In this document: piece by piece, positions 1,682 to 62,498 of the stretch
How positions within the stretch are numbered: position 1 is the first letter of the stretch
How the letters are laid out: every line of letters begins with the position of its first letter
Source of the DNA: a virus
Taxonomy: Duplodnaviria; Caudoviricetes
Length of the DNA: 64,000 bases
Direction: 5' to 3' (one strand)
IMG/VR virus record: IMGVR_UViG_3300050491_000011
Position numbers and translations under genes: made by a program
Notes under the pieces: model-generated
What the model saw: the letters and a program-made list of their open reading frames with translations, nothing else
Database searches by the model: none
Told to the model about the DNA's origin: nothing

Positions 1682-4600
1682 ATGTCTGAAATGTTAAATC
1701 TCGACGTTTATGTCAGACAGTTCAGTTTGTGGCGGCAATCGGAGATCAATGCTCCGAAGCTTTACCCGATCGCAAAGCTCTGTCTGCCTAAGTTGTCGAT
1801 CCTGCATTACGCAAACGTTGACGGTGTGTCCGTAGGTCCTCAAGCATCTGATCAGATCTTTCTGACTCGTCAGGCGCTTTTGTACATCGACCACAAGAGC
1901 CGTTACATCGATCCAATTGGCAACCCTGTGAAGACCCTCAGCAACGTTGAGGGTATGATCACTGAGTACCGTCGCCGTAATCGCGCGTTTCGTCCCATGC
2001 GCAAGCTGGAGCGGCTGGAGAACGATAAACAGTCTCTGGTCATCTACAACTACTCCATGCTGGCGCACATCGTCAAGTATTCAGCGTCTTTCCGCGCTTC
2101 GTACTTCATGTGGTACAACATCTACCACGAAGTTATTCTGAACATGAACCACTTGGCGCAGGTTAGTAACCGCCAACAGTTCATTGAGATTGACCTCCCA
2201 GACGTCATCCCTCCTCTCGCTGCATTGCGTGAGTATTCGAATAACCTCACGGCTCAAACGCTGGCGAAGTTCAGGACACCTGAAGCTAAGCTCTTGGCTG
2301 ACCTCTTCATGTGGGCTGGTCCTGATCGGGCTAAGAGCCTGTTCGGTAAGCTCGAGTCCGATAACCTGAGTAAGATCAACCTGATCGTTCGTCGTTTGAA
2401 TGGCTGGGTGGTGATCAACCTCGGGTGGTTGGATTCGTTCCGTTCCGAGAAGAACCTTCCTGAGGGTCTCGATCCTAAGGAGAAGAAGCGTCGTGAGAAA
2501 GGTGAGGAACCAAAGACCTTCTCGCTGCGTTTCCTGAAGCTGTTGACCACGATCCATCAAGGCACTACGCCGATTGCCACTGAAACCGGTGATTCGGTGT
2601 TGGAAGAGCCTCTGGTTGAAGTTAACCCAGATGACGCGAAGATCGACTCGCAAGACTTCGACCTCGAAGACGAGATGACCGCGCTGGGCGATTCCAATCA
2701 GTTGATGGACGATGACGTTGAACTCTCCAAGCTTGAGAAAGAGCTGGAAGAACTCGACAAGTTGAAAGATCTGTTCGCCACTTCCGAACAAGTCGACGAA
2801 GACGGTGACCTGATTGAACAGAAGGTTATCAACGTTGACCTCATGGCCCAGAAAGCAGGTGTCGCCAAAGAAGGCGAGGCAATGCTCAACAAGGCTAATG
2901 AACTGTACGGCAAGGGGTTGCTTACCCAAGGTGAGTATCGTCGCTTAGAGCGCCTCTCAACCGTCTACGAGACACTCCCTAACCCCTACGGTGGTGAAGG
3001 TAACTTCGTTGACGCGATGAAGATCACTCGTGAAGACGTTTTGGTCGACCCTCAGGAGTTGACCAACGATTCCGTGGTGACTGATAAGTCGTTGGCATTT
3101 AGCCGTGTGGATGCTGTTGATCAGAAGTACATCAAAACTGTACTGAAGAAAGACATCATGCGTGCTGTGTCTTCGATGCAGAAGGGCGCCGTAGCGATTA
3201 CGAGTTACGTGGTCGATCGTAAGATCGATGCCGTGAACGATCGTGAGATGCACATCGTCAAGTTTGCGCCGGCTGTTGGTGTTCCTTCCACAGTCAAGTT
3301 CGAGCTTCCGACTATTCGTGAAGATGGCACGTTCCTGTATAACGGTACTGAATACCGGATGCGGAAACAACGTTCCGACTTGCCTATTCGTAAGGTAGGT
3401 CCTAATCGGGTGGCGCTGTCCAGCTACTACTCGAAGATCTTCGTTGAACGGTCGAACCGCAAGAAGTTCGATTACGGCAAATGGCTCTTGGGTCAGCTGA
3501 CCGTTAAATGTCTCGATCCAGAAGACCCGCACATCTCCAACGCTGTGCTGTCTGATGCAACCAACTTCAAAGCTGACGTACCGATGGTCTACTCGACTAT
3601 CGCCGGTAGCATTGCGGCGTTCACGGTTGACAAGCTGGATCTGTACTTCGATTACAAACACCGGATCAAGAAGTTCAACTACACCAAGGAAGAACTGTCG
3701 CTCGAGAAAGGCGGCTACGTTCTCTGCGGTCGTTCCAAGATGGGTCCGCTGGTCATGGCTCCTAACGGCATGATCTACGTCCATTGGAAGAACGAGCTGC
3801 AAGACCTGGGTACGGTTGAGTCTCTGTGCGGTATCGAGATGAGTGCTGAGTCGACGCCGATGTACATGGCTGAGATGAAGATCTACTCGAAGACCATTCC
3901 GGTAGGCTTCGCACTGGCTTACCTGCTGGGTATCGACGAACTGCTCAAAGTGCTTAACGTCGTTCCACGACGTGCATTGGTTGGCGAACGTCTGAACCTT
4001 CAGCCGGATGAGTACGCAATCCGCTTCAAGAACGAATCGCTGATCTTCAAGCGCAGCGACGTAATGGCGGGGATGCTGCTGAGTGGCTTCAACCTTTACC
4101 ATGCTGTCATCCGCAACTACGACATTGAACTGTTTAACGACAGGGATGTGTACGCTGCTGTACTTGAGCGTAGTGGTGTAGGTTCGCGCTATGTCCGTGA
4201 GCTCGATGCGTTGAACACTTTGTTCATCGACCCGATTACCGAAGACTTGCTCGAATGGATGAAAGAACCTACGACCTTCACCGGTCTTCTGGTTCGTGCT
4301 ACCGAGATGCTCCAAACCAACATGGTGCGTGTGCGCCGTGACGACAAGGACCGTCTGGTAGAAGGTCTGGAAAGGGTTCGTGGTTACGAACGTGTGGCGG
4401 GGGTGGTTTACGAGACACTCTCGAAGGCTATCCGTTCTTACACGACTCGTTCGGCTACTGGCCGGGCATCGGTTGTGGTTAACCCGAACGACACCATCAA
4501 CGCGCTGGTGCAAGATCCAACCACATCTCCAGTAAACAACATCAACCCGATCCACAGCTTGCGGGAACGGGAAGTTATCACCTTCGGTGGTCGTGGTGGT

Positions 4601-5956
4601 CGTAGCCGTCGTGCGATGGTTGCAAACACCCGTCTGTTTACTGATGAAGACATGGGCTTTATCTCGGAAGGTACGGTTGACTCCGGTGACGTGGCAATCA
4701 TCACCTATCTGTCTCCGAACTCCAACCTGACCTCTGTACGTGGTACGGTTCGGATGTACGATGCAGAACGAGACGGTGCTTCGGCATTGTTCTCCACCGC
4801 AGGCTTGCTCAGCTTCGGTGCGGACGGCGATGACCCTAAACGTCTGAACTTCATTCAAGTACAGCACGGTCACGGTATCATGACTGTGGGCTCGGAAGTT
4901 CAAGGCGCTCGTACCGGCATGGAGCGAGTAATCGCTGCCCGGATGAGTCCTGAGTTTGCTGTTACCGCGAAGCAAGATGGCGAGGTTACTGAGATCGCCG
5001 CTGATGCAATCACCGTTACCATGAAGGATGGTACTGTTGCTAAGTACCCACTCGGATTGGTTCACACGACTGCTGAAGGTTCTGTGTATCCGAACATCAT
5101 CGCTACGACCCTTAAGGTCGGTGAGAAGGTGAGCGAGTACGACGTCATTACCTACAACAAAGGCTTCTTCAAACCAAGCATGTTGGACAAGCGTCGTGTT
5201 GACTACATGAACGGTTGCATTGGCCGCATTGCACTTCGTGAAGCCACGTACACCGTAGAAGACAGTAGCTCCATCTCTGTTGATTTCGCCAAGCGTATGG
5301 GTACTTACGTCAGCAAGCTCAAGACGATTGTAGTCGACTTCCATGACGGCATTAGTGGGTTGGTTAAGGAAGGTGATAAGACTGACCTTGACACAATTCT
5401 ATGCACGATTGAAGGCGCGGTTTCGTCTGCTGCCGGGCTTTATGACGACGCTACGCGGGAGACACTCCGTAACTGGGCAGCGATGACGCCGAAGGCTAAG
5501 GCCGTGGGTGTGGTTGCCAAGGTCGAGGTCTTTTACAACGGTGAGATCGACTCGATGTCCGACAGCCTGATGTCTATCGTGGCTGATTCGGAGAAAGAGC
5601 GCAAACGCTCTGCCAAACGTCTGGGCAAGGAATATGTTCCTGCTCGCGTAGGACGCAACGTTCGTATCGACGGACACACGCTTGAAGACCGTCAGGCTAT
5701 CATCATGGTTTACATCACCACCCCGGTGGGAATGGGCATCGGCGATAAGCTGGTAATTGCCAACCAGATGAAGTCTACAGTCGGTGAGATCCTCATCGGT
5801 AGCAACCGGACTCTTGAGGGTGAGTTCATCGACGCGATCTTCGGTGCTAAGTCGGTAATTGACCGGATCGTAACAAGTCCGTTCGATATCGGAACGACCA
5901 ACACCGTCCTGCGCTTTATCGGCGAAGAAGCATACGCTGATTATTTTGGCGAGTAA
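1682..5956 (+). CDS. Virion RNA polymerase beta-like subunit (phiKZ gp178-like) with a long N-terminal extension
   Basis: 1424 aa. Has the beta-type motifs GTVDSGDVA, KRLNFIQVQHGH and the C-terminal GMGIGDKLVIANQMKSTV. An acidic segment spans roughly aa 300-380. Adjacent to the beta' gene. Confidence 0.9.
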   Translation: MSEMLNLDVYVRQFSLWRQSEINAPKLYPIAKLCLPKLSILHYANVDGVSVGPQASDQIFLTRQALLYIDHKSRYIDPIGNPVKTLSNVEGMITEYRRRNRAFRPMRKLERLENDKQSLVIYNYSMLAHIVKYSASFRASYFMWYNIYHEVILNMNHLAQVSNRQQFIEIDLPDVIPPLAALREYSNNLTAQTLAKFRTPEAKLLADLFMWAGPDRAKSLFGKLESDNLSKINLIVRRLNGWVVINLGWLDSFRSEKNLPEGLDPKEKKRREKGEEPKTFSLRFLKLLTTIHQGTTPIATETGDSVLEEPLVEVNPDDAKIDSQDFDLEDEMTALGDSNQLMDDDVELSKLEKELEELDKLKDLFATSEQVDEDGDLIEQKVINVDLMAQKAGVAKEGEAMLNKANELYGKGLLTQGEYRRLERLSTVYETLPNPYGGEGNFVDAMKITREDVLVDPQELTNDSVVTDKSLAFSRVDAVDQKYIKTVLKKDIMRAVSSMQKGAVAITSYVVDRKIDAVNDREMHIVKFAPAVGVPSTVKFELPTIREDGTFLYNGTEYRMRKQRSDLPIRKVGPNRVALSSYYSKIFVERSNRKKFDYGKWLLGQLTVKCLDPEDPHISNAVLSDATNFKADVPMVYSTIAGSIAAFTVDKLDLYFDYKHRIKKFNYTKEELSLEKGGYVLCGRSKMGPLVMAPNGMIYVHWKNELQDLGTVESLCGIEMSAESTPMYMAEMKIYSKTIPVGFALAYLLGIDELLKVLNVVPRRALVGERLNLQPDEYAIRFKNESLIFKRSDVMAGMLLSGFNLYHAVIRNYDIELFNDRDVYAAVLERSGVGSRYVRELDALNTLFIDPITEDLLEWMKEPTTFTGLLVRATEMLQTNMVRVRRDDKDRLVEGLERVRGYERVAGVVYETLSKAIRSYTTRSATGRASVVVNPNDTINALVQDPTTSPVNNINPIHSLREREVITFGGRGGRSRRAMVANTRLFTDEDMGFISEGTVDSGDVAIITYLSPNSNLTSVRGTVRMYDAERDGASALFSTAGLLSFGADGDDPKRLNFIQVQHGHGIMTVGSEVQGARTGMERVIAARMSPEFAVTAKQDGEVTEIAADAITVTMKDGTVAKYPLGLVHTTAEGSVYPNIIATTLKVGEKVSEYDVITYNKGFFKPSMLDKRRVDYMNGCIGRIALREATYTVEDSSSISVDFAKRMGTYVSKLKTIVVDFHDGISGLVKEGDKTDLDTILCTIEGAVSSAAGLYDDATRETLRNWAAMTPKAKAVGVVAKVEVFYNGEIDSMSDSLMSIVADSEKERKRSAKRLGKEYVPARVGRNVRIDGHTLEDRQAIIMVYITTPVGMGIGDKLVIANQMKSTVGEILIGSNRTLEGEFIDAIFGAKSVIDRIVTSPFDIGTTNTVLRFIGEEAYADYFGE

Positions 5957-26670: not shown

Positions 26671-26688
26671 TTATAGTCCTACATTGTA
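26671..26688 (+). promoter_or_regulatory. TTATAG-N4-ACATTGTA motif, copy 2
   Basis: Same motif as 12571-12588; 45 nt upstream of ATG 26733. Confidence 0.45.
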
Positions 26689-26732
26689 CTCTTAGAATAA
26701 CCAACACTAACCGACCGTAGGAGGTCAACGCA

Positions 26733-28582: not shown

Positions 28583-29314
28583 ATGTTTAAAATTACAGCG
28601 CTGCACGTTATCGATGAACTGGGTCCTAAGTTCATGGAGTTCTTGAAGAAGAACCAACTGGTGGAGTTTGTCACCGATCCTGCTGGCTATCTGGATGAGA
28701 AGACCGTTATCGGTACTATCTTCTCGCTGGCTTACGGCAACGGTGTTCACTCCTCCCAGTTCGAGGAATGTAGTAAGCGCCTTGTTTCATTGTTGGGTGG
28801 GCATGTGCCTGAAGAGTTGGTCGATGAGCTTCTCTCGCAGGCACTGGGTTATCGGGATAGAGCTCAACTTCGTTCCAAGGCTGTAAAGCTGAAGTTCAAG
28901 TCGAGAACGTATTACTACCCGAGTGTGTGGCGTCACGGGATGACTGGCCGTAAACAAATCTTCGAGCCAGACTCCATTGCTCCAATCGACGTCAAGGTAA
29001 AGGTCATTGACTACTGGACGCTGTTCCAGGAACGTGGTTATGAAGATCAACCGACCACGTACTACACTCCAGTTGATTACATGGTTAAGGTGGCATTCCA
29101 CTACAACCAATGTCGTAAGACCTTGAAGGAATGTGCGCGTGACATGCAGATCCTGTCGTCTGGTCAACTGACCCTCGGTGATTCGTACAGACTCCTAGCT
29201 AAGGCGATGGGGTACGAGTCTTGGTATCATGCCAAAGTTTCATCCGCTCCTGATGAGAACATCGAAAACTTACGTAACCCACGTCCAAGCATCGGCGTCT
29301 ACGCCCAACACTAA
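28583..29314 (+). CDS. Hypothetical protein with two copies of a small helical (HTH-like) module
   Basis: GAGGA ribosome-binding site before ATG 28583; ELLSQALGYRD and RLLAKAMGYESW are internal repeats. Confidence 0.75.
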   Translation: MFKITALHVIDELGPKFMEFLKKNQLVEFVTDPAGYLDEKTVIGTIFSLAYGNGVHSSQFEECSKRLVSLLGGHVPEELVDELLSQALGYRDRAQLRSKAVKLKFKSRTYYYPSVWRHGMTGRKQIFEPDSIAPIDVKVKVIDYWTLFQERGYEDQPTTYYTPVDYMVKVAFHYNQCRKTLKECARDMQILSSGQLTLGDSYRLLAKAMGYESWYHAKVSSAPDENIENLRNPRPSIGVYAQH

Positions 29315-29326
29315 GAGTTAAGTCTC

Positions 29327-30823
29327 ATGACCATCCGCGAAGAAGTTATCGCTTTGAAACCCCAAACAACCGAACGTGAAACTCCTACTCGTATCTTCGG
29401 TGAAGCTGAAGTTCGTCAGACGTACATCACCAAGGCTAAGTTCGAAAGTGCTGGTCGGGGTTCCTTCAATCCTCTCGTCCTACTCGGCGCTAATGCCGAC
29501 TTCGACGGTAACGCATTGAGCAATCTGTTAGACGATGGTTTAGTGAAGTCTGAACAGTTAAAGCAGGTTCTTTTCACTCGAGGTTACCCGACAGACATCA
29601 ATTCCAACATCTCCCTTACTCCAGATGCGTTGGCTGATTACTCGCGCTTTATGTCTGAGCTGCAAACCACCACTGTTCTCGAGACAGCGGAAGCGGCCAA
29701 AGCTCTGATCATGGAAAGTAAACCTCTTGATGAGAGTGAGTACTTCAACCGTAAGATGTTAGCTAAGGCTGAAGCGACTGAACAGCGCATCCTTAAGTTG
29801 ATGGAACAAGGGATGACTCGCGTTGAGGCTGAGCAGGTAGTTGCTTATAATGCGGATCAGCTCAACAAGATGCGTCAGAAAGAATGGCGTCAACACATCA
29901 ACAGCTACGAGTTGGGTGGTCCTGACGATCCGAACCGCCGGCCGCTACGGAATGACCTGTACGACGATGCGATTGTCAATCGCCGGTATTCTTCGGTAGA
30001 GTTTCATGTGAATGCAATCGAGGACCACATCAACAGCATCCTGTCGGTCAAGGAGGCTGGTTGGGAAGGTCGGGTTATTCGTCTGCGTGAATTCCAAGCC
30101 AAGCTGCTGACTCCACTTGAAGAGCCTAAAGCTATTGAACCTGAGGAGCCGCCACCGCCACCACCTATTCTGGACTTCAGCACTGGTGATCTGGAAATGC
30201 CTGAGCGGTTCATCATCAAGGACCTCAAAGGCTTCGAGTTCAATCCAGATACCAAGTTCGATGGCCTACGTCTGCCGTATGACTCCTGCCTGTTTGTATT
30301 GGGTGATGAGTTGAAGGCTGTCGTTCTGGCTACTCAGGAAGACGAAGACGTCATCACTCTGAAGCTTCTGTCTGAAACCAAGACAGATATCCCTTGGCAC
30401 GCCACTGCAACGCTGTATGCGCGTCTTCAAGGCGATAAGGTTAAGGTTCGTTGGGGTAACACTAAACGCAGCCTGGATAAGCGTTTGGGTATGGTGTCGT
30501 CGATCCTTGCTTTCATCGCTGGTGAGCAGCTTAATGAAGTTGAGATCGAAACAGTTATCACCGCTCCTGAGCAAGATGTCCCACCACCTAAGCCGGGCAA
30601 CTGCTACAACGTGGTTAGTCTGGTACAAGGTCGTCGCGGTAAACGTACTGATTGGAAAGGTGGTACTCACGCCTCTCCTCGTGAACACAAACGCAAAGGT
30701 CACTGGTGGCCTGGCAAACACGGTCCTATCTGGATCAAGGCTACTATCGTGAACAAAGGTGTTCTCGGTAAAGTCGATAAAGAATATCACGTTACTAAAA
30801 TTGAGGAGGTTGTAAATGCCTGA
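29327..30823 (+). CDS. Multidomain accessory protein: N-terminal NADFDGN (RNAP-like) segment, helical middle, polyproline linker, C-terminal HxRxGHW domain
   Basis: NPLVLLGANADFDGN (29468-29512), EPPPPPP linker, and GGTHASPREHKRKGHWW near the C-terminus. Confidence 0.8.
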   Translation: MTIREEVIALKPQTTERETPTRIFGEAEVRQTYITKAKFESAGRGSFNPLVLLGANADFDGNALSNLLDDGLVKSEQLKQVLFTRGYPTDINSNISLTPDALADYSRFMSELQTTTVLETAEAAKALIMESKPLDESEYFNRKMLAKAEATEQRILKLMEQGMTRVEAEQVVAYNADQLNKMRQKEWRQHINSYELGGPDDPNRRPLRNDLYDDAIVNRRYSSVEFHVNAIEDHINSILSVKEAGWEGRVIRLREFQAKLLTPLEEPKAIEPEEPPPPPPILDFSTGDLEMPERFIIKDLKGFEFNPDTKFDGLRLPYDSCLFVLGDELKAVVLATQEDEDVITLKLLSETKTDIPWHATATLYARLQGDKVKVRWGNTKRSLDKRLGMVSSILAFIAGEQLNEVEIETVITAPEQDVPPPKPGNCYNVVSLVQGRRGKRTDWKGGTHASPREHKRKGHWWPGKHGPIWIKATIVNKGVLGKVDKEYHVTKIEEVVNA

Positions 30824-31148
30824 CGTACCAGCTGAATCCGAAATCACCCGCATGCGTAAGATTCACAGCGATGCAGTGATCGATCCTGATGCTCCACCGA
30901 AGACCATGGAAGAACATATCGGCGAAGTCGAGAAGTTCCTCACCAAACCTGCTGTACCGGCGGCCCTTGCTCCATGTGATGACGAGGTATTCAAGAAAGG
31001 TGTAAGTCTTGGTTTCTTCGACATGCCTAAACTGGAGGCGGAAGCTTACTGCGTCGAACAGTCCAAGATAACTGGACGTAAGCATGACTGGCACTATGTT
31101 GGTGGTCGTGTTCACATCAAGGCTATGCCTGAAGTAGAAGCTGAGTAA
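30816..31148 (+). CDS. Hypothetical protein (110 aa)
   Basis: GAGGAGG ribosome-binding site; overlaps the previous stop; followed by a terminator. Confidence 0.75.
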   Translation: MPDVPAESEITRMRKIHSDAVIDPDAPPKTMEEHIGEVEKFLTKPAVPAALAPCDDEVFKKGVSLGFFDMPKLEAEAYCVEQSKITGRKHDWHYVGGRVHIKAMPEVEAE

Positions 31149-31151
31149 ACG

Positions 31152-31192
31152 AGTAGCCTCCCTTCGGGGAGGTTGCTTCATTCTTTTTTTTT
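31152..31192 (+). terminator. Intrinsic terminator
   Basis: AGTAGCCTCCC-TTCG-GGGAGGTTGCT followed by a T-tract. Confidence 0.85.
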
Positions 31193-32096: not shown

Positions 32097-32109
32097 GTTA
32101 TACATTACC
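32097..32109 (+). promoter_or_regulatory. GTTATACATTACC candidate promoter
   Basis: Identical 13-mer to 58253-58265. Confidence 0.5.
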
Positions 32110-33042: not shown

Positions 33043-34050
33043 ATGTCTGAAGTAATCAACACTGGCCTGATCAACGTTCGTCCTCGCACTATCCGTTTCT
33101 ACGCCTGTGGTGGTACTGCAATCAACCAACTGCGCGCTTACCGTGACAACCATCCGGGCGAGCCGCGTCTGCACGGCGACGAGAAATACAGCTACATCGA
33201 TACTTCCTTCGCCAACCTCGACGGCGCTCTGCTGTCCGAAACCTTCACCCTGAAAGGTGTCGATGGTTCCGGTTCCAACCGTAAACAGAACGCGGCGAAG
33301 ATCGTTGCTGCGCTGCCTGAAATCATGTTGGCTCATCAGGCTGCTGATTTCAACGTCGTGATCTTCTCTCTGTCGGGCGGTACTGGCTCTGTTGCCGGTC
33401 CGATCATTCTGAAAGAACTTCTGGCCAAAGGTCACAAAGCTGTCGGCGTTACTTCCGCAGCCTTCACCTCCGGCAAGAAATCCTCCAACGCCATCGATAC
33501 CCTGACTGGCCTGGAGCTGGCTGTTGCGTCCGTCGGCCGTCCGGTTGTTCTGAGCTACACCCCGAACGATCCGAACAAGACCGATTCCGACAACAACATC
33601 AAACCACTGTTCGTTCTGCAAACCCTGGCCAAATTGGCGAGCGGCAAGAACGGCCATCTGGATTCGTCCGACGTGGCGAACCTGTTCGACTTCCACACCG
33701 TAACCAACTACAAGCCATCGCTGGCTCTGCTGGATGTTTACGCCGGTGAAGAACAACTGAAAGCTGACGTCACCAGCGCCATCGGCATTGCCGGTTTGCT
33801 GAAAGACCGCACCAGCGTCATGCCAGCTATCAACGCTGCGTACGACACTGTGGGCTACCTGCCTGAAGACAACCGTGACTTCGCCAACTCCTTCTACTTC
33901 GTCGTTTCCATCGAGAAACTGAACGGCGTCGTGAAAGACATGAACGACCGCAAAGCTCAGGCTGAACTGAAAGAACGCGTCACCAACACTGTCTCCACCC
34001 TTGCTACCGCTGGCGTTGTGGTAGATGAAGCAACCGGCCTGGTCCTCTAA
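33043..34050 (+). CDS. phuZ: Phage tubulin PhuZ
   Basis: FYACGGTAIN nucleotide-binding loop, tubulin signature SLSGGTGS and an acidic-hydrophobic C-terminal knuckle (VVDEATGLVL); 335 aa. Confidence 0.93.
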   Translation: MSEVINTGLINVRPRTIRFYACGGTAINQLRAYRDNHPGEPRLHGDEKYSYIDTSFANLDGALLSETFTLKGVDGSGSNRKQNAAKIVAALPEIMLAHQAADFNVVIFSLSGGTGSVAGPIILKELLAKGHKAVGVTSAAFTSGKKSSNAIDTLTGLELAVASVGRPVVLSYTPNDPNKTDSDNNIKPLFVLQTLAKLASGKNGHLDSSDVANLFDFHTVTNYKPSLALLDVYAGEEQLKADVTSAIGIAGLLKDRTSVMPAINAAYDTVGYLPEDNRDFANSFYFVVSIEKLNGVVKDMNDRKAQAELKERVTNTVSTLATAGVVVDEATGLVL

Positions 34051-43461: not shown

Positions 43462-45474
43462 GTGAGCAAAGAAAACGACGGCTTCGAAATGAAAGACGAA
43501 CCAACCACCCAACGCGCTGAAGCACCAGCTTCTGAGCGTCGCGAAGAACGCCGTGAAGAGCCACGCCGTGAAGAACGTAGCACCCGCCGTGATCGCGATG
43601 ATCGTGAAGAAGGCGAAGAACGTGCGTTCACAATTGCAGACATCGGCCGTACCCTGAACGTTCGTCCTTCGAGCGGTGGCCTGTCCGACGCAGCTCTGTC
43701 TGCTCTGATGACCGCGTTCGAGAAGAACAAGGCATTCGACAAACCGAACCTGCCTGATGCAATCAAGCGCGACCGTTTCAAAGTGATTCCGCTGGACGGC
43801 TCCCTGGCCAAGTCCTCGCTGAACTCGCTGCTGGTAACTCTGCCAATCGTCATCGGCGCTGGCAAGGCTACCCTGGTTTACGTTCTGACCATCGAACCAG
43901 CTGGCGGCCATGGCACTCGCAGCCAGGTCGATCGCGGTACGACCTACGACGCCATCGTCCTCCCTGAGGACCAACTGGCTACCAAGCCGTACAAACGCGC
44001 CATCGAAGATCAGGTCTCCGGCCTGAACAAAGATGCCAAGGTTGTGGTGATCGGTTCGCAAGTTCTGCTGTCGTCGGTTGTGGCGAAGCTGAACAAAGAA
44101 GAAAACAGCGCCGTCGTCGATCGTATCTTCGACAACGCCCTCGATGCACTGTGCGGCTATCGCGAAAACCTGGTCGACAAGGCCGGTGGTTCCCGCAACA
44201 GCGCATTCCGCATCAGCCCGAAAATGATCGGCCGCACCGGTCGTCTGGAAACCACCTGGAACTACAGTGGCCAGCCAGGCGAAGACAGCTCGGGTCAACC
44301 GATCCGTTCTGACTGCACCGGTAACCTGTTCTACAGCGAAGCCAGCAACGAAGACGACAACCAGTACGACCGTACCCCAATGGGCGAAATCCGTGCCGGT
44401 ATCGACCTCTTCCTGGCCGACAACCGTGAACAGCAGAACGGTCCTTCGTTCAGCCGTCGCCGCAAGTCGCAAGAAGATGGTGAACCGTTCATCCAAGCGG
44501 TATTGAACATCACCTCGATCGCGCCTGCTGCGAACTTCCCGTTCTCCCTGGAACTGGCGCTGCTGCTGTTGGCTCAGGCCAACCTGCAATCGAACGACTA
44601 CCGCTGGGCTTCCCAGCTGCGTCCTCGCACTGCAATCAGCAACCCAGACGGCACCGGCGTGATGAAGCCTACCAGCAACATCAACTGCCTGCACCTCTTG
44701 AATCCGAACCGCGACTTCGCCAAGATCTTCGACGACGTGTCTCCGAACATGGACGACAACGATCTGAGCGATTACCTCGCGTTCACCGTGTTCCCGAAAC
44801 TGGCGATCGGCATGATGATCCCATCTTCGGGCGAGAAGTCCTCGGTTCTGTCGATCTTCGAAAGCATCGCGACCACTCGCGATACCGACGTTGCTCGTCG
44901 CCACACCAAGACGCTGTTCGAAGCTGCCGACGTTCTGTCGGGTAACCGCTTCAGCCGCGCCTACAAGGACCTGGCTGGTTCCGTCGACGTAGCTCCAGTT
45001 CGTTCGATGGGTACTCGTCAACTGATCGGTACTTGGGTCGACACTCAGGGCAACCTGCGTGACCTGCGTGAATGGAACGTCCAGTCTCTCCTCACCGAAG
45101 TTGGCGAGAAGAACATCGATCTGGTGCAGGACTTCCAGTACACCTACGAAAACGACCGCAACACCGTGGACTTCTGCCTGGCAGAACGTCTGGGCTACCT
45201 CCAGAAGGTTGTTCCGGGCATCCGCGTTACCACCACTGCACCGCTGCTGGGCTTCGAGCCTGACTTCCTGGAAGCGCTGTCGCGTTCCCTGGACGCAGCT
45301 GACATGTCGAGCTACATGACTGCCGAAGGCGGTCTGAACACTCGTCGTCACGTTGGTGGCAGCGCCTACTCGCAGCTGGCAACTTCCGACATCGGCATCA
45401 GCCGTCGTCGTGGTTCCGACCGTACCACTGCCGATCGTGGCCGTGGCGGTCTGTTCGACTCGATCGACTACTAA
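43462..45474 (+). CDS. chmA: Chimallin, the major phage-nucleus shell protein (phiKZ gp54 / 201phi2-1 gp105-like)
   Basis: 670 aa with charged disordered N- and C-terminal tails and very strong codon bias. Has GTWVDTQGNLRDLRE and LAER motifs. Lies between the DNA polymerase block and the nvRNAP beta' gene, the canonical position. Confidence 0.88.
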   Translation: MSKENDGFEMKDEPTTQRAEAPASERREERREEPRREERSTRRDRDDREEGEERAFTIADIGRTLNVRPSSGGLSDAALSALMTAFEKNKAFDKPNLPDAIKRDRFKVIPLDGSLAKSSLNSLLVTLPIVIGAGKATLVYVLTIEPAGGHGTRSQVDRGTTYDAIVLPEDQLATKPYKRAIEDQVSGLNKDAKVVVIGSQVLLSSVVAKLNKEENSAVVDRIFDNALDALCGYRENLVDKAGGSRNSAFRISPKMIGRTGRLETTWNYSGQPGEDSSGQPIRSDCTGNLFYSEASNEDDNQYDRTPMGEIRAGIDLFLADNREQQNGPSFSRRRKSQEDGEPFIQAVLNITSIAPAANFPFSLELALLLLAQANLQSNDYRWASQLRPRTAISNPDGTGVMKPTSNINCLHLLNPNRDFAKIFDDVSPNMDDNDLSDYLAFTVFPKLAIGMMIPSSGEKSSVLSIFESIATTRDTDVARRHTKTLFEAADVLSGNRFSRAYKDLAGSVDVAPVRSMGTRQLIGTWVDTQGNLRDLREWNVQSLLTEVGEKNIDLVQDFQYTYENDRNTVDFCLAERLGYLQKVVPGIRVTTTAPLLGFEPDFLEALSRSLDAADMSSYMTAEGGLNTRRHVGGSAYSQLATSDIGISRRRGSDRTTADRGRGGLFDSIDY

Positions 45475-45555: not shown

Positions 45556-47046
45556 ATGGATTTGATTAATTACGATATCTACGAGCCACGTCAGCGTTAT
45601 CCGGGGCGGAAGGGTATCTATCCGATGATTGAAGACTTCGACAAGATGTTCAAGAACTTGAGCATTAAGCCGATGTTAGCAAACGATCTGGATCTCGAAA
45701 CAGATGAAGGTAAGCAGAAGTTCAACGATCTGGTCTACACTAAGTACGACGGGGATGTATTCTCGAACGTGCCATCGTGCCCATGCCGTAAGACTTCCGG
45801 TGGTAGCCGTATTCATGACAACTGCATTCACTGTGGTTATGAAGTTCTGCCGATCACTGAACAGACGATCGAACCTATCGTCTGGGTAATGGCGCCCCCA
45901 GAAGTTCCTGGGTTCATCAACTTGACAATCTACCGGTTGCTCAAGGCCAGATTCACCAAGTCCTCATTCAGCGTCTTCGACTACATCCTTGATCCAAAGT
46001 ACCGCCCTCCTAAGCTTAACAGCAAAGAAGAGCGTCTTATTGAAGCGATCGTACCTACTCGTGGGTTGGTCTACTTCCATAAGAACTTCGATGAGATCAT
46101 GTCCAAGTTGTGCGCAATCAGGCACTTCGTAACAGCGGCCAAAGCTGCTAGCACGATGCGATTCATCGATCTACACAAACACCTGATCTTCTGTCGTTAC
46201 ATGCCGTTCCCATCCAAGATTGGTTTCATCGTCGAAGATGTGGGCGACCGTACGTATGTCGATCCAAAGATGGCGCCCGCACTGGATGCGCTCATCTGTC
46301 TTGGCAAGGTAGCATCGGCCAAGCGCATCTCGCTGTACGATCTTGAATCCCGGATCGCACGGTCAAGCAATAAGCTCTGCACCTATTACTCTGGTAACGA
46401 GCATCTCAAAATCTTTGACAAGAAAGGAGTATTGCGAAAACTGGTTTACGGTGTATCCCCGCACTTTACCTTCCGGACGGTGATTACCTCGAACCACAAA
46501 CCTCACGATCACGAGTCTCTCGAGATTCCATGGGGTTCCGCTGTTCTGACGTTTAAGCTACACATCGCGAACAAGCTACGGAAGGAGAAGTATACTCCTA
46601 ACGAAATCTTGACGCTGATCTACGATAACGTCCTCCGCACACACCACCGCATTGAGAAGATCTTCGACGAGCTGATCGCCGAGTCTCCGGGTGGACGTGG
46701 GATGATGGCAGGCTTTACGCGGTTTCCATCGCTTAAGCGTGGTTCTACGCAAGGCTTCTATATCGACACGATCAAACGTGACCCTACCCAATTGAGTACA
46801 TCCATCTCTGTGTTGACGCTTGTAGCGCCTAACGCCGACTTCGATGGTGACTACATGTCTGGACAATTGGCACTGGATAACGTGACTACACGGGCTTTCG
46901 AGCGCCTGAAACCAAGTACTGGGTTCATGGATCTCAAGAAGGTCTTCGGAGTGAGCAACCACGCCAACATACCGGCGCCGGTGATCTCAACTATCAACGC
47001 ACGTATTGAGGAAGGAAACGACCTATCAGTACCCATGGGAGATTGA
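45556..47046 (+). CDS. Non-virion RNAP beta'-like catalytic subunit (phiKZ gp55-like)
   Basis: Zinc-binding CPC...CIHC, RFPSL and NADFDGD (46831-46851). Confidence 0.92.
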   Translation: MDLINYDIYEPRQRYPGRKGIYPMIEDFDKMFKNLSIKPMLANDLDLETDEGKQKFNDLVYTKYDGDVFSNVPSCPCRKTSGGSRIHDNCIHCGYEVLPITEQTIEPIVWVMAPPEVPGFINLTIYRLLKARFTKSSFSVFDYILDPKYRPPKLNSKEERLIEAIVPTRGLVYFHKNFDEIMSKLCAIRHFVTAAKAASTMRFIDLHKHLIFCRYMPFPSKIGFIVEDVGDRTYVDPKMAPALDALICLGKVASAKRISLYDLESRIARSSNKLCTYYSGNEHLKIFDKKGVLRKLVYGVSPHFTFRTVITSNHKPHDHESLEIPWGSAVLTFKLHIANKLRKEKYTPNEILTLIYDNVLRTHHRIEKIFDELIAESPGGRGMMAGFTRFPSLKRGSTQGFYIDTIKRDPTQLSTSISVLTLVAPNADFDGDYMSGQLALDNVTTRAFERLKPSTGFMDLKKVFGVSNHANIPAPVISTINARIEEGNDLSVPMGD

Positions 47047-53250: not shown

Positions 53251-53293
53251 TTATTAGAGCAAGCACCATATAGTGACCAAGCGGAGTGTATTG

Positions 53294-58306: not shown

Positions 58307-60487
58307 ATGAATCCATTTGATCCAACCGATCATTTACCTCAAGAGCGCTACACCATTCCGCCGGAGATGGTTCCGATCAGTGGTTTGAACTCTCAATTCA
58401 AATGTGTCTCTGGTGCCCGTCAGGCAATGTTCACCGGTAACCTGTCCCAAGTATTGATCGTGGATGGCCGTACCCGTAAACGCCAGCAGACTGGGTTGGA
58501 ACGTGAGATTGCCAAAGCTACATTTAACCATCAGTTTCCTCGTGAAGCTGTGGTACTGGCAATCATCCCCCGCTTTACATCCCGTAACTTCGGCGATAAG
58601 TTCCAGATCAACCCGTTCGATCTGGTGATCTACGAGGATTGGGAAACGAAAGAACTGGACGTGGTTGAACTCAGCAAGTTTCACGTAATGCACCAGCATT
58701 ACGGGTTTGAGTTCGAGTACGATCAGGACGTCTACGACGCCATCACCAAAGGTAAGCGCTTCAAGGCAGGTACTGTAATTGCTCGTTCTCCGGCTGTAAC
58801 GGATGATGGCGACTACATGTACGGTCTGGAAACCAACGTCTGCATGATCTCTGATCCGGCAGGTACTGAAGACGGTGTAAAGATCAGTCAGAGTTATGCC
58901 AAGCGTATTCGCTCGACAGGCTTTGAAAGTCGGATTGCTCGCTTCGGCGGCAGCCATTACCCGATTAACTGGAACGGTAACCTGGAAGAGTACAAACCTA
59001 TTCCAGACATCGGTGATTTCATCCAGTCAAACGGTCTGATCTGCGCTTCACGGCCTTTCGATCCAAAGTACGATCCAGTCTACATGACTCGTACTAAGCT
59101 GCTTAAACCGCAGTATGGGTTGGATACACCGCTGTACGGCGTACCTAACGCTCAGGTCGTAGACATCCGAGTCCTTCATAACGATAGGCTGTCTTCCCCG
59201 AAACTACCTAAGGAAATGACTAAACAGTTCCTGAAGTACTACGAGGCTGACCAAGAGTTCTACACCAAGATCGTTAAGACGTGCCTCTGCCGGAAAGGTA
59301 ACTTCCTGGCTGACGACGTTGCAATGTCTCCACGTCTGCGCATCCTCCTGTACGAAGCAATCGCACGTAGCGGTGAGCGTCTGCTGGAAGAAGGCATCTG
59401 GCCGAAGAGCAAAGCCGACCAACTGCGTGTTCGCACGAAGTATCGCGGTGAGATCTTGGATGAGTTCCGTGTGGAAATCATCTATCAGTACAAGACCTCT
59501 GTGGGCGAAGGCCCTAAGGTTACTGACCAATCTGGTGGTAAAGGCGTTACTTCGGCGGTTGCTCCAGACGAAGACATGCCTACTGACGAGAACGGCGTAC
59601 GCGCCGACGTAGTGATCTTCTCGAACTCTACGGTAAACCGCCTGAACAACGGTCGTCAGCATACTCAGGTTATCGGCGCTGCTGGTCGTGACATCATCAA
59701 ACGTGTACGTAAGTCCTACGGTCTGCCACCTGTTGGCGCGATCGACAAGGCTGAAGTCAAGCGTGTGGTGACGTCTCAGAACAACGTGGCTGTGACCATG
59801 AAGAACTTTGCGTACATCATCGGCTTCTATAAGCTGGTGGCTCCGGCGATGTACGAACGTCTTACTCGCAACGATATCATTCCGCAAGGTATTCACTTGC
59901 AGCATGTAATCGAAGTGATCATGGACGGTGAAGTTGACCACGGTCTGTTCCTGCAACTCGCTTCCAGTGATGAGGTCTACATGGACCAAGTCATCCGGGA
60001 GATCGAGGCTGGTCCGTACATGCCAGACTTGACTCCGGTTAAGTATCGGAATCTGGCTGGTGAGATGGTAACTACCAAGACCAAGATCCTGATCGGTCCT
60101 GACTACTACCTGCCTTTGGAGAAGACGGCTACCGACGGTTCCGGTGTATCGTCCTCCAAGACAAACCACTTCGGCGTTACTGCCCGTCTGACGAATGCTG
60201 ACAAGTATTCCAGCCCTGGCCGTGAAACCGTAACCAAATCTACCGGTGAGTCCGAAGCGCGTAACCACGCTCACGCCTACGGTGCTGAGCCCCTTGCTCA
60301 CATCATGGACTTGAACTACAACCCGGTGGTTCACAAAGAAGCCTGTATGACGATCCTCACTCACGAGACACCGACCAACATCGAATGTCTTGTTGACCGT
60401 GAGAAGTTTAAGCTTGGTGGACATCGTCCGCTGGCTTACGTTCGCCACATGATGGCCGTATCTGGTAAGAATATCTCCAGGGAGTAA
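58307..60487 (+). CDS. Non-virion RNAP beta-like subunit, C-terminal half (phiKZ gp71-73-like), uninterrupted
   Basis: SGARQAMF, TEDGVKIS, GPKVTDQSGGKGV, ADVVIFSNS and TGESEAR, all beta region H/I-like motifs. Confidence 0.9.
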   Translation: MNPFDPTDHLPQERYTIPPEMVPISGLNSQFKCVSGARQAMFTGNLSQVLIVDGRTRKRQQTGLEREIAKATFNHQFPREAVVLAIIPRFTSRNFGDKFQINPFDLVIYEDWETKELDVVELSKFHVMHQHYGFEFEYDQDVYDAITKGKRFKAGTVIARSPAVTDDGDYMYGLETNVCMISDPAGTEDGVKISQSYAKRIRSTGFESRIARFGGSHYPINWNGNLEEYKPIPDIGDFIQSNGLICASRPFDPKYDPVYMTRTKLLKPQYGLDTPLYGVPNAQVVDIRVLHNDRLSSPKLPKEMTKQFLKYYEADQEFYTKIVKTCLCRKGNFLADDVAMSPRLRILLYEAIARSGERLLEEGIWPKSKADQLRVRTKYRGEILDEFRVEIIYQYKTSVGEGPKVTDQSGGKGVTSAVAPDEDMPTDENGVRADVVIFSNSTVNRLNNGRQHTQVIGAAGRDIIKRVRKSYGLPPVGAIDKAEVKRVVTSQNNVAVTMKNFAYIIGFYKLVAPAMYERLTRNDIIPQGIHLQHVIEVIMDGEVDHGLFLQLASSDEVYMDQVIREIEAGPYMPDLTPVKYRNLAGEMVTTKTKILIGPDYYLPLEKTATDGSGVSSSKTNHFGVTARLTNADKYSSPGRETVTKSTGESEARNHAHAYGAEPLAHIMDLNYNPVVHKEACMTILTHETPTNIECLVDREKFKLGGHRPLAYVRHMMAVSGKNISRE

Positions 60488-60518: not shown

Positions 60519-62498
60519 TTGGCAAGTCACCGTCGATTCAGAGCCCGTGATCTGTTCGAACAAATGGTACATCTTTGGCCGTGTAAAGAATACGAGGAGT
60601 TCATCCTCGAGTTTGATGACGGCGATACGATGACCACCACAACAATCAATACCCAGATCTCCCGCAAGCTCTGGTTGCCACACGAGGTGTACAACAAACT
60701 CGGCATCTATAAACGTCACCACATCGGTAACGGTTCGATGTCCAATGAACGCATCCATGAAGTACAGGCTGCGATCACTGAAGACATGTACAACACGTAC
60801 GGTGAGAAAGGCTTTAACCGTGAAGAGTTGTGGCGACACAACTATTACGGCACCAACCGTCTGTACAACGAATCGATCATCGAGTATGCGGCGTATGTTC
60901 GCGGCAGTAACTCGTTCGACTTCAGCCATCTGTACGAGTATCCGCCAATCCACAAGATCCGGACCGAATGTAAGCCTAACAAGCTATCAATCGAGAAGGC
61001 TTACGATGCGGCGAAGTTGGTTCTGGAACGTGACCCTGCATTGGCACGTAACGTAATCATCTCTGACCTGCGGGCTGGTCTGCTCAAGATGGAGCAGTTG
61101 CTTCAGATCCTCATCGTGCGTGGCTACAACACCGACATCGATGGGCACGTATACAGCAAACCAATCATGGGCAACTACTTCGCAGGGATTCATGATCCAG
61201 CTGAAGCCATGATGGAATCCACACTGGCCGCTAAGGCTATCATCTTTACTGGTGCGCCGCTCGAACAAACCGAGTATGCAAACCGGAAGATGCAGTTCAC
61301 TACCCAGCAGGTTGACTTGCTGGTAATGGCTGACTGTGGATCGACTGAGTACGGAGAGATTGAGATCACCAAGTTCAGGTTCAAAGCCATGGACGGTCTC
61401 AACTATCTCGATCCTGATACCAACAAGCTGAAACCCCTGCGGATGGCTGACACTCACCTGATCGGTGAGACACGCAAGTTCCGTCTGGCGTTCAACTGTA
61501 AGTACCGGCATCACAACAACGTCTGCAAGATGTGCTACGGCTTGCTGGCGTATAACGTGCCGTTCGGTGCTAACATCGGCCACATCGCATCTACAATGAC
61601 CCAATCGGAAGTATCTCAGGCAGTGTTGAAGGTTAAGCACTCTGAGGCGTCTGCTTCTTCTGATCCGATCATCATTCAAGATGAAGAAAGACCGTACATC
61701 CTCCCAGCATCTGAAGGTCACCAGATTCGTCTGAACCCAAGGCTGGGCGTTAAGGGTATTCCGCTGATGCTTCGCGGTGGTTACTCTCAGGGTGTTCACA
61801 ACGCATCGAAGCTGCCTGTACTGAAACGTAACGATCTGCGTGCTGGCGTAAACATCGCCAAGTTCAGTCAGTTCCGTGAAGTCAGCTTTGAGCTGCCTAG
61901 CGAGAACAAGCAGTCGAACCGGGTACACGTCACGGTATCCCGTGGCGCTCGCATGTCGAACCTGACTCGTGAGTTCCTGGACTACTTCCTGAAGAAAGGC
62001 TTCCGAATCGATGATGATGGTTATTATCGGATTGATCTGAAGGATTGGAACTTCGACCTGCCAGCCTTTGAAATGCCAAACCGTCACGGTAGCATGAAGG
62101 ATCACGCAGCAGTAGTGGAAGTAATGATCCGCTCTACTCGTGACTCTAACCAGCGTCACCTCGGCCGGTTGAAGCAACTCAAGGACTATGCTAACCCAAC
62201 TGAAGCAATGTTGGATACGCATGAACTGATCGCGCTGAAGGTTCCTGTTCACTTCACCCACGTCGCTATTGTGTTGCTGTCTATGATGGTATCCAGTACG
62301 AAGTCCGGTGATTACAGGATTCCACCTCTGGGCGAACCTACACGGTTTGCTAAATACGATCACGTAATCAGTGGTCGTTCCATGGGTGCGTTCTTCGCCT
62401 ATCAGGGTGGTCGTAACCTGCTAGATACACTTGAGCAGTACATGATGAACGAACGGGAACAACATCTGCTTGATCCACTGCTGATGCCCGGCTGGTAA
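60519..62498 (+). CDS. Non-virion RNAP beta'-like subunit, C-terminal half (phiKZ gp74-like)
   Basis: TTG start; DCGS; zinc site CKY...VCKMCYG; IGHIASTMTQSEVSQAVLKVKH bridge/trigger-like region. Confidence 0.88.
   Translation: MASHRRFRARDLFEQMVHLWPCKEYEEFILEFDDGDTMTTTTINTQISRKLWLPHEVYNKLGIYKRHHIGNGSMSNERIHEVQAAITEDMYNTYGEKGFNREELWRHNYYGTNRLYNESIIEYAAYVRGSNSFDFSHLYEYPPIHKIRTECKPNKLSIEKAYDAAKLVLERDPALARNVIISDLRAGLLKMEQLLQILIVRGYNTDIDGHVYSKPIMGNYFAGIHDPAEAMMESTLAAKAIIFTGAPLEQTEYANRKMQFTTQQVDLLVMADCGSTEYGEIEITKFRFKAMDGLNYLDPDTNKLKPLRMADTHLIGETRKFRLAFNCKYRHHNNVCKMCYGLLAYNVPFGANIGHIASTMTQSEVSQAVLKVKHSEASASSDPIIIQDEERPYILPASEGHQIRLNPRLGVKGIPLMLRGGYSQGVHNASKLPVLKRNDLRAGVNIAKFSQFREVSFELPSENKQSNRVHVTVSRGARMSNLTREFLDYFLKKGFRIDDDGYYRIDLKDWNFDLPAFEMPNRHGSMKDHAAVVEVMIRSTRDSNQRHLGRLKQLKDYANPTEAMLDTHELIALKVPVHFTHVAIVLLSMMVSSTKSGDYRIPPLGEPTRFAKYDHVISGRSMGAFFAYQGGRNLLDTLEQYMMNEREQHLLDPLLMPGW

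Follow-up and report, generated by a model that had tools for sequence, protein, structure and literature searches.

This report concerns a gene on the + strand of a 64,000-nt stretch of viral DNA (IMG/VR record IMGVR_UViG_3300050491_000011; 'the window' always means that whole stretch), whose 498-aa product, P0001 (open reading frame, ORF, 29327-30823), joins an N-terminal array of short peptides copied from the catalytic core of a phage RNA polymerase (RNAP) to an AcrVA2/FinQ-like C-terminal domain. The window comes from a nucleus-forming jumbo phage, a chimallivirus, and its markers include chimallin (43462-45474), PhuZ (33043-34050), a DNA polymerase, a large terminase and two RNAP sets, the virion (vRNAP) and non-virion (nvRNAP) enzymes. 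Megablast of the window against cultured phages returned no near-identical DNA, and the nearest relative of its beta'C subunit, from Pseudomonas phage pPa_SNUABM_DT01, is 33% identical. The upstream ORF ends at 29314, 12 nt ahead of the P0001 start codon at 29327, and the gene lies within a run of uncharacterised genes between a promoter-like motif and a terminator-like hairpin (Table 1). A gene of this type occurs in one copy per genome in the three genomes checked, and Pseudomonas phage Noxifer provides a cultured member with an array (gp262; MF063068.1 229328-230545).

In cellular beta' subunits the catalytic loop carries the motif NADFDGD, whose three aspartates bind Mg. A preliminary description of the window had reported NADFDGN near the N-terminus of the P0001 ORF, and translation places it at aa 56-62 (nt 29492-29512), within FNPLVLLGANADFDGNAL (aa 46-64) and GRGSFNPLVLLGANADFDGNAL (aa 43-64). 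From the six-frame composition of the window, 0.0006 occurrences of NADFDG and 0.02 of ADFDG are expected; ADFDG was observed three times, at 1437, 29495 and 46834, every one in a long + strand ORF. The first and last belong to what the same description took, at 1434 and 46831, for the phage's own catalytic subunits, and these are indeed genuine RNAP (ORF 3-1661, phrog_2986, E 1.7e-178; ORF 45556-47046, phrog_2987, E 9e-130). The NADFDGN match is thus not a matter of chance. It is kept in homologues down to ~30% identity, and in relatives at 84-91% identity its residues are constant, four of the seven codons vary synonymously, the preceding residue varies and, in one lineage, the seven following residues are deleted. 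The synonymous codon changes show that selection acts on the protein, and explanations at the DNA level (a homing-endonuclease decoy, a repair template or the target of a diversity-generating retroelement) were dropped for that reason. The loop had also been called 'defused', which is apt: among 22 family instances, the position of the third catalytic Asp holds Asn 18 times, Ser twice and Asp twice.

NADFDGN is part of only one of seven short motifs (a to g), 14-27 residues long as modelled and separated by variable linkers, that characterize those family members whose N-terminus is extended. To trace the source of the motifs independently of how we ourselves had read them, we built hidden Markov models (HMMs) from the family instances (32 homologues) and searched 479-483 sequences, namely all six-frame ORFs of the window minus P0001, phiKZ gp68-74, gp80 and gp123, and E. 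coli RpoB and RpoC. Control HMMs of two non-RNAP motifs from the middle region of the family found no matches in the same set. On the basis of the top matches (Table 1), the array consists of phage-type nvRNAP motifs drawn from all four beta/beta' fragments, and P0001 itself contains at least one copy from each of the four. Residues 56-149 match phrog_3015 (E 9.7e-14) at profile positions 171-262 of 653 only, residues 57-149 match phiKZ gp74 188-278 (PDB 7OGP_D; E 8.5e-7, 39% identity over 85 aa), and P0001 matches the window's own beta'C at E 9e-13; read against E. coli beta', we take this gp74-like stretch to be region F plus the bridge helix (SEYFNRK against SGYLTRR). On E. coli RNAP, motifs b-g presumably correspond to the catalytic loop, region F, the bridge helix, beta SRMNIGQILE, YMLKLNHLVDDK and QRFGEMEVW, and we assume that all of these line the active centre.

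Table 1. Positions of P0001, its parts, the flanking signals and the genuine nvRNAP genes in the window, with family consensus and best HMM matches (E values) of the array motifs
Feature	Position	Strand	Nature and basis	Consensus	HMM matches
P0001 whole gene	29327..30823	+	N-terminal RNAP-motif array, helical middle, proline-rich linker, AcrVA2-like C-terminal domain; from ORF and homologues		
Motif a, aa 33-52 YITKAKFESAGRGSFNPLVL	29423..29482	+	copy from near the C-terminus of a gp123-type (beta N-half) subunit; includes 'PLV'	Y...PK..P.G.G.INP	phiKZ gp123 497-512, 1.1e-7
Motif b, aa 17-32 RETPTRIFGEAEVRQT	29375..29422	+	copy of beta C-half motif; E. coli QRFGEMEVW, phiKZ gp73 RETAIRSFGESETR	R..P.R..GESE.R	phiKZ gp73 205-220, 3.8e-8; window beta C-half (ORF 58307), 0.011
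Motif c				SRMN.GRLLE	window beta C-half 441-450, weak, domain E 0.19
Motif d, aa 71-97 GLVKSEQLKQVLFTRGYPTDINSNISL	29537..29617	+	copy of beta' region F (gp74-type)	EQL.QVL..RG..TDI(D/N)S.IF	gp74, 1.4e-9; window beta'C (ORF 60519), 7.4e-8
Motif e				(Y/H)L.LLEK.G.D	gp73 166-176, 0.0039
Motif f, aa 122-145 EAAKALIMESKPLDESEYFNRKML	29690..29761	+	copy of beta' bridge helix (gp74-type)	KAL......PL...EYFNRK	gp74, 3.6e-7; window beta'C (ORF 60519), 2.2e-5
Motif g core, aa 56-62 NADFDGN	29492..29512	+	copy of beta' catalytic loop, third Asp changed to Asn	L.G.NADFDGN.L	window nvRNAP beta'N (45556 ORF), 2.6e-5; E. coli RpoC, 0.006; vRNAP subunit, 0.06
Helical middle, aa 146-271	29762..30139	+	family motifs GMT.(V/E)EAE..AYN and GWE.R(V/I)I, not RNAP-derived; AlphaFold2 helices 136-261		
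Proline-rich linker, aa 272-282 PEEPPPPPPIL	30140..30172	+			
AcrVA2/FinQ-like domain, aa 283-498	30173..30820	+			
H454-K-R456-K-G-H459 (HxRxxH)	30686..30703	+	spacing as AcrVA2 H286/R288/H291		
Promoter-like motif TTATAGTCCTACATTGTAC	26671..26689	+	probable head of the operon with the P0001 gene; putative		
Intrinsic-terminator-like hairpin, strong	31151..31178	+	operon end; 12-bp stem and T run		
nvRNAP beta'N, gp55-type	45556..47046	+	genuine subunit, source type of motif g; phrog_2987, E 9e-130		
nvRNAP beta C-half, gp71/73-type	58307..60487	+	genuine subunit, source type of motifs b, c and e; phrog_3295, E 6.5e-172		
nvRNAP beta'C, gp74-type	60519..62498	+	genuine subunit, source type of motifs d and f; phrog_3015, E 1.8e-151		

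The peptides behave across the family as separable units. Searches recovered 18 relatives (word-indexed) or 249 (exhaustive), and arrays were counted over 33 members; what the family shares is the C-terminal ~215 aa, which also exist as stand-alone proteins of 220-300 aa. Motif order takes at least 12 arrangements, for example b-a-g-d-f in P0001, a-c-d-b-g-e-f in P0007 and a-e-b-c-d-f-g in Noxifer gp262. Motif f is present in all 33 members, b in 29, a in 23, d and g in 22 each, c in 12 and e in 11, and 18 of the 33 have motifs from all four subunits. Motifs e and b, ~28 residues apart in gp73, abut in P0017 and P0018, and less conserved linker residues of the polymerase have been removed. Motifs a and g adjoin in P0001, whereas they start at residues 16 and 83 in P0006 and at 23 and 143 in P0017. 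In the AlphaFold2 model of P0001, the predicted local distance difference test (pLDDT) score is below 50 for aa 1-62 and 83-135 and there are no strands before residue 295, so that the array (aa 17-145) is probably disordered. Array-only proteins were sought at 90-290 aa and none was found without the C-terminal domain. An 87-aa metagenomic protein, P0045, has motifs b and a, a g variant with all three aspartates (NGDFDGD) and an e-like motif without the C-terminal domain; it may be a gene fragment cut off at a contig end, or else a truncated relative. Because order varies, linkers are removed, motif residues are kept, pLDDT is low and the array was never found without its C-terminal domain, we read it as a flexible stretch of linear peptides that act as independent modules and are linked in cis to that domain. 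As judged from the sequences, the array is under protein-level selection, with motif order, number and linkers free to vary.

These patterns bear directly on another explanation, that recombination left pieces of RNAP genes in the N-terminus as a mosaic without function. In these phages the RNAP genes are split and are known to be hit by mobile introns, which lends the idea some plausibility; nevertheless, retention of the motifs in 33 members down to ~30% identity, with synonymous changes, variable flanks and loss of the less conserved linkers, makes it scarcely credible to us. The array is also a clade-specific addition, since pPa_SNUABM_DT01 has a plain AcrVA2-like gene without an array (PA10_00175) and tblastn found no P0001-like gene in phiKZ-group records; in Phabio, whose host is that of Noxifer, the gp74-type subunit was the sole match. 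A PHROGs search of the N-terminal extensions of 10 other long AcrVA2-like proteins found no fragments of other families. We also considered that a phage's own RNAP might have diverged to escape the array, or that the array tracks its own RNAP, and three genomes gave no consistent signal for either.

Could P0001 nevertheless be a polymerase subunit? The answer is no. Complete nvRNAP subunits are present in the window, and a complete 254-kb relative has a full gp74 orthologue as well as a separate P0001 orthologue, so the P0001 gene is an extra one; it lies outside both RNAP gene groups of the window, as the preliminary description had said of what it rightly called an accessory protein. We rejected P0001 as the phage's sole gp74-type subunit (the true one lies at 60519-62498 and is present in relatives too), as a full gp74-type beta'C (no full-length collinear match that includes the trigger-loop half) and as the missing vRNAP beta'C, or gp80 orthologue (BLASTP E >= 3.8 to gp80). 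The locus also lacks gp79-gp80 synteny, the upstream gene matching gp79 only at BLASTP E 0.99, and P0001 reads NADFDGN in place of the three Mg-binding aspartates of NADFDGD. ORFs in Noxifer (67172-67486; 499 aa) and in the genome G002 (102743-102982; 477 aa) have weak phrog_3015 matches at profile positions 263-355, and are probably gp80-type vRNAP beta'C subunits rather than further arrays. At the window's left end the virion polymerase genes adjoin each other, with a 1424-aa vRNAP subunit (1682-5956; phrog_3148, bit score 1417) directly after the 552-aa GADFDGD subunit.

The preliminary description had gone further and proposed that a fragment captured from beta' now works as a catalytically dead decoy or RNAP-interacting module, which might soak up RNAP-targeting defence factors or secondary-channel ligands, or sense NTP/Mg2+. 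Part of this stands, in that the motif does derive from the beta' catalytic loop and its lack of the third, Mg-binding Asp is a conserved trait. What does not stand is the fragment itself: only 7-14 residues match, and sequence similarity to beta'N extends over no more than ~14-23; the loop is one of seven shuffled motifs, and structure prediction of aa 1-130 with AlphaFold2 gives no double-psi beta-barrel around the loop and mostly pLDDT <50. With only short shuffled peptides in such a region, a mimic of a ligand pocket or channel cannot form. Nor are the motifs host-type, as had been argued from the upstream PLV: the motif g model scores the phage's own nvRNAP beta'N best, at 17.3 bits against 10.1 for E. 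coli RpoC, the resemblance of P0001 to E. coli HPLVCAAYNADFDGD (BLAST E 0.045) is weaker than its match to the phage's beta'N, and NPLV is the end of the separate, 20-aa, gp123-type motif a. Of the suggested signature PLV-x4-NADFDG[ND], NADFDG[NS] is conserved in homologues and the spacing to PLV is not. Since the C-terminal domain, moreover, points to action linked to the ribosome, we consider a captured module very unlikely, although a decoy or RNAP-interacting role is possible if it is played by linear peptides rather than by a folded active-site mimic.

That C-terminal domain was first described as putatively nucleic-acid-binding, and it has turned out to be AcrVA2/FinQ-like instead, ~215 aa long and with the conserved HxR(xxH) motif of that family. 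The model of aa 283-498, from a 45-sequence alignment, is good (pLDDT 83.5; predicted template modelling score, pTM, 0.80), and its best ESM Atlas match (TM score 0.71, 203 residues aligned) is to a viral cluster with PF26125, 'AcrVA2-like', in 46% of its members. The same Pfam family is found in 78 of the 100 named clusters that lie nearest in language-model feature space (score 0.97). In addition, hhalign of the family profile against a 350-aa protein of IncI conjugative plasmids gives 98.8% probability and E 6.7e-17 over the C-terminal ~100 residues, across the HxR block, pairing GGT..RMHLRRGHIRRK..IWIRPAMIN..VDKDYQI in the family with GGTHASPREHKRKGHWW..IWIKATIVN..VDKEYHV in the plasmid protein. 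R452, H454 and R456 are invariant in the 45 sequences, and HxRxxH, which lies 44 residues from the P0001 C-terminus, aligns with MHLRRGH of the plasmid protein. Other searches were less informative: Foldseek of the domain found no solved relative in the PDB and only uncharacterised proteins among AFDB clusters and in BFVD; the domain-alignment profile (A2) and the IncI-plasmid protein had no matches among PDB sequences; and Pfam hmmscan of P0001, its homologues and alignment A2 had none in a Pfam copy that does not contain PF26125 and so says nothing about an AcrVA2-like assignment.

The plasmid gene deserves a comment in its own right. On the E. coli IncI-gamma/K1 plasmid pPWD4_103 (1754-2806) it lies directly upstream of a ProQ/FinO-family gene, and it recurs across 224 plasmid records, mostly conjugative enterobacterial (214 of the 224 are typed as conjugative), where every listed record gives it as a 'hypothetical protein'. 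We probably have here finQ, which current annotation leaves without its name; its size and plasmid group fit, and the records do not confirm the name.

AcrVA2 itself offers a mechanism to think with. It binds a conserved LSKT peptide among the first 30 residues of Cas12a while this is being synthesised and makes the mRNA disappear in a translation-dependent manner, for which its H286, R288 and H291 are required (10.1101/2022.11.29.518452). Its homologues, including FinQ and 'megaphage' genes, mostly occur without Cas12a and have divergent N-termini, suggesting other targets (10.1101/2022.11.29.518452). Later summaries report an association of the C-terminal part of AcrVA2 with ribosomes and its recruitment of a cellular enzyme, and add that the peptide acts as a transferable tag (PMC13728456, PMC12908700). 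By analogy with this system, we give about an even chance to the view that P0001 is a ribosome-associated, co-translational regulator aimed at nvRNAP subunit synthesis. It would work in the cytoplasm, at ribosomes, and would either act on nascent nvRNAP subunits or respond to them. Two versions can be imagined. In one, the array would be bait, its copies of buried inter-subunit core segments binding nascent or orphan subunits and bringing the silencing domain to their mRNAs; in the other, the AcrVA2-like core would itself read such peptides, and the protein's own array would be a pseudo-substrate or self-tag that competes with them or makes P0001 self-limiting. The narrower statement that an AcrVA2-type silencer armed with nvRNAP core peptides homes in on, or is titrated by, nascent or unassembled subunits is a tentative one that we regard as possible but doubtful. 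Either way, the use might be control of the stoichiometry or timing of a split polymerase, or exclusion of a co-infecting chimallivirus that still needs to make its nvRNAP.

Several points weigh against such a regulator. The motifs are internal or C-terminal in the genuine subunits, while the peptide recognised by AcrVA2 is N-terminal; segments of 15-25 residues, once removed from a buried core, may bind nothing specifically; and a single peptide groove that reads seven different motifs is a stretch. The reason for a phage to lower its own nvRNAP is only argued, the array motifs in three genomes are no closer to their own RNAP variants than to foreign ones, and motif c has weak statistical support.

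The same array invites two further explanations. In phiKZ-like phages the split RNAP subunits are translated outside the phage nucleus, and in RNAP structures the source segments form the lining of the active centre between the two barrels. The copies could be assembly placeholders that cover the sticky surfaces of the four nvRNAP fragments, each made separately, until these assemble or are imported into the nucleus, all four fragments being represented, or P0001 might ride piggy-back into the nucleus with them, in either case without mRNA decay. Such a role leaves unexplained why the array is so strictly tied to an AcrVA2-like domain whose HxR is invariant, and assembly does not need the array, which is missing from many chimalliviruses, phiKZ and pPa_SNUABM_DT01 among them; we think this explanation quite unlikely. 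Alternatively, the array could be a sponge, offering target peptides to hostile AcrVA2/FinQ-type (or other nascent-chain) silencers of plasmids, prophages or rival phages that hit the exposed cytoplasmic translation of nvRNAP, with the AcrVA2-like part placing the decoy at the ribosome. The motifs do lie at the very N-terminus, where AcrVA2-type reading takes place, all four subunits are covered, and the AcrVA2 family is widespread on mobile elements whose hosts mostly lack Cas12a. However, no stand-alone arrays were found among proteins of 90-290 aa, and the HxR residues needed for AcrVA2 silencing are invariant here, which suggests an active effector and not a passive decoy. To our knowledge, moreover, there is no AcrVA2-type silencer of RNAP. 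A sponge is thus unlikely in our view, and we return to P0001 as a candidate regulator of nvRNAP synthesis.

Turning to the neighbourhood of the gene, the octamer TACATTAC occurs on the + strand at 32101, 43146, 43208, 53243 and 58257, a short way ahead of phuZ, chimallin, the nvRNAP beta C-half gene and the gene at 53273. With one mismatch allowed, TATATTAC is matched only 8 times, fewer than the 21 expected by chance, yet five of the eight are the exact variant TACATTAC, ahead of presumed early genes. From its sequence context, TACATTAC is likely to be an early (vRNAP) promoter element. Unlike the chimallin, phuZ and nvRNAP genes, the operon of the P0001 gene begins after TTATAGTCCTACATTGTAC instead. 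Immediately downstream, a 110-aa gene (30816-31148) with no family assignment overlaps the P0001 stop by 8 nt; its homologues are 231 and 209 aa long in the close relatives L006 and L009, and 102 aa and further downstream in G002, and by this comparison the gene may have been shortened in the window phage. It was considered as a conserved partner of P0001 and rejected, being retained in close relatives and G002 only and not in Noxifer.

What might all this mean? Full-text literature searches returned no mention of NADFDGN, no link of AcrVA2 with jumbo-phage RNAP and no description of a shuffled array that strings together linear catalytic-core motifs of four subunits and shows a conserved replacement of Asp by Asn. 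Mobile elements very often carry AcrVA2 homologues, whose only known targets, as far as we know, are Cas12a and probably the F tra genes; P0001 itself appears to spell out what one member of this large family is concerned with, phage nvRNAP. If true, this would be the first target for the family beyond Cas12a and tra. P0001 would then either keep a split enzyme under a natural form of 'assembly-sensing' control or be a weapon by which a superinfecting chimallivirus is prevented from building its polymerase. The DNA of chimalliviruses is hidden in a protein nucleus, but their polymerase subunits have to be translated in the open cytoplasm, and a regulator or weapon at this cytoplasmic step would be new for phage-phage and phage-host conflict. 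P0001 thus suggests that polymerase production can be controlled or attacked by a route not described so far, and with both Noxifer (gp262) and its host P. fluorescens SBW25 in culture, the family is directly testable.

Four known systems help to place the protein. The seven motifs of the family copy the most conserved segments of the phiKZ nvRNAP beta and beta' fragments (gp74, gp55, gp71-73 and gp123; PDB 7OGP), namely the catalytic loop, region F, the bridge helix, the counterparts of beta SRMNIGQ, YMLKL..DDK and QRFGEMEV, and the gp123 C-terminal motif, although P0001 has no barrel and no collinearity with them, its linkers are deleted and the third catalytic Asp is lost. With FinQ, the fertility inhibitor of IncI plasmids, which lowers F tra mRNA, P0001 shares a putative role in conflict between mobile elements and the profile homology of its C-terminal ~100 residues to a FinQ-sized IncI-plasmid protein whose identity as FinQ is not confirmed, whereas the N-termini are unrelated. 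The resemblance to AcrVA2, the anti-CRISPR of a Moraxella bovoculi prophage (PDB 7CI1/7CI2; PF26125), is drawn from sequence and predicted structure together, similarity to AcrVA2 itself being undetectable by HMMER: both the ESM Atlas and the language-model neighbours of aa 283-498 are PF26125 clusters, the C-terminal HxRxxH has the same spacing, both lie on mobile elements, and the AcrVA2 family reads short conserved peptides of its targets. P0001 differs in its 280-aa N-terminal extension and in its setting, a jumbo phage with no link to Cas12a. Finally, TTC5, which mediates tubulin autoregulation in eukaryotes, has no homology to P0001, and an autoregulatory role of P0001 would be an inference; the analogy, which the AcrVA2 authors cite, is a conceptual one, in that a nascent N-terminal peptide is read there and the mRNA decays, matching the supply of subunits.

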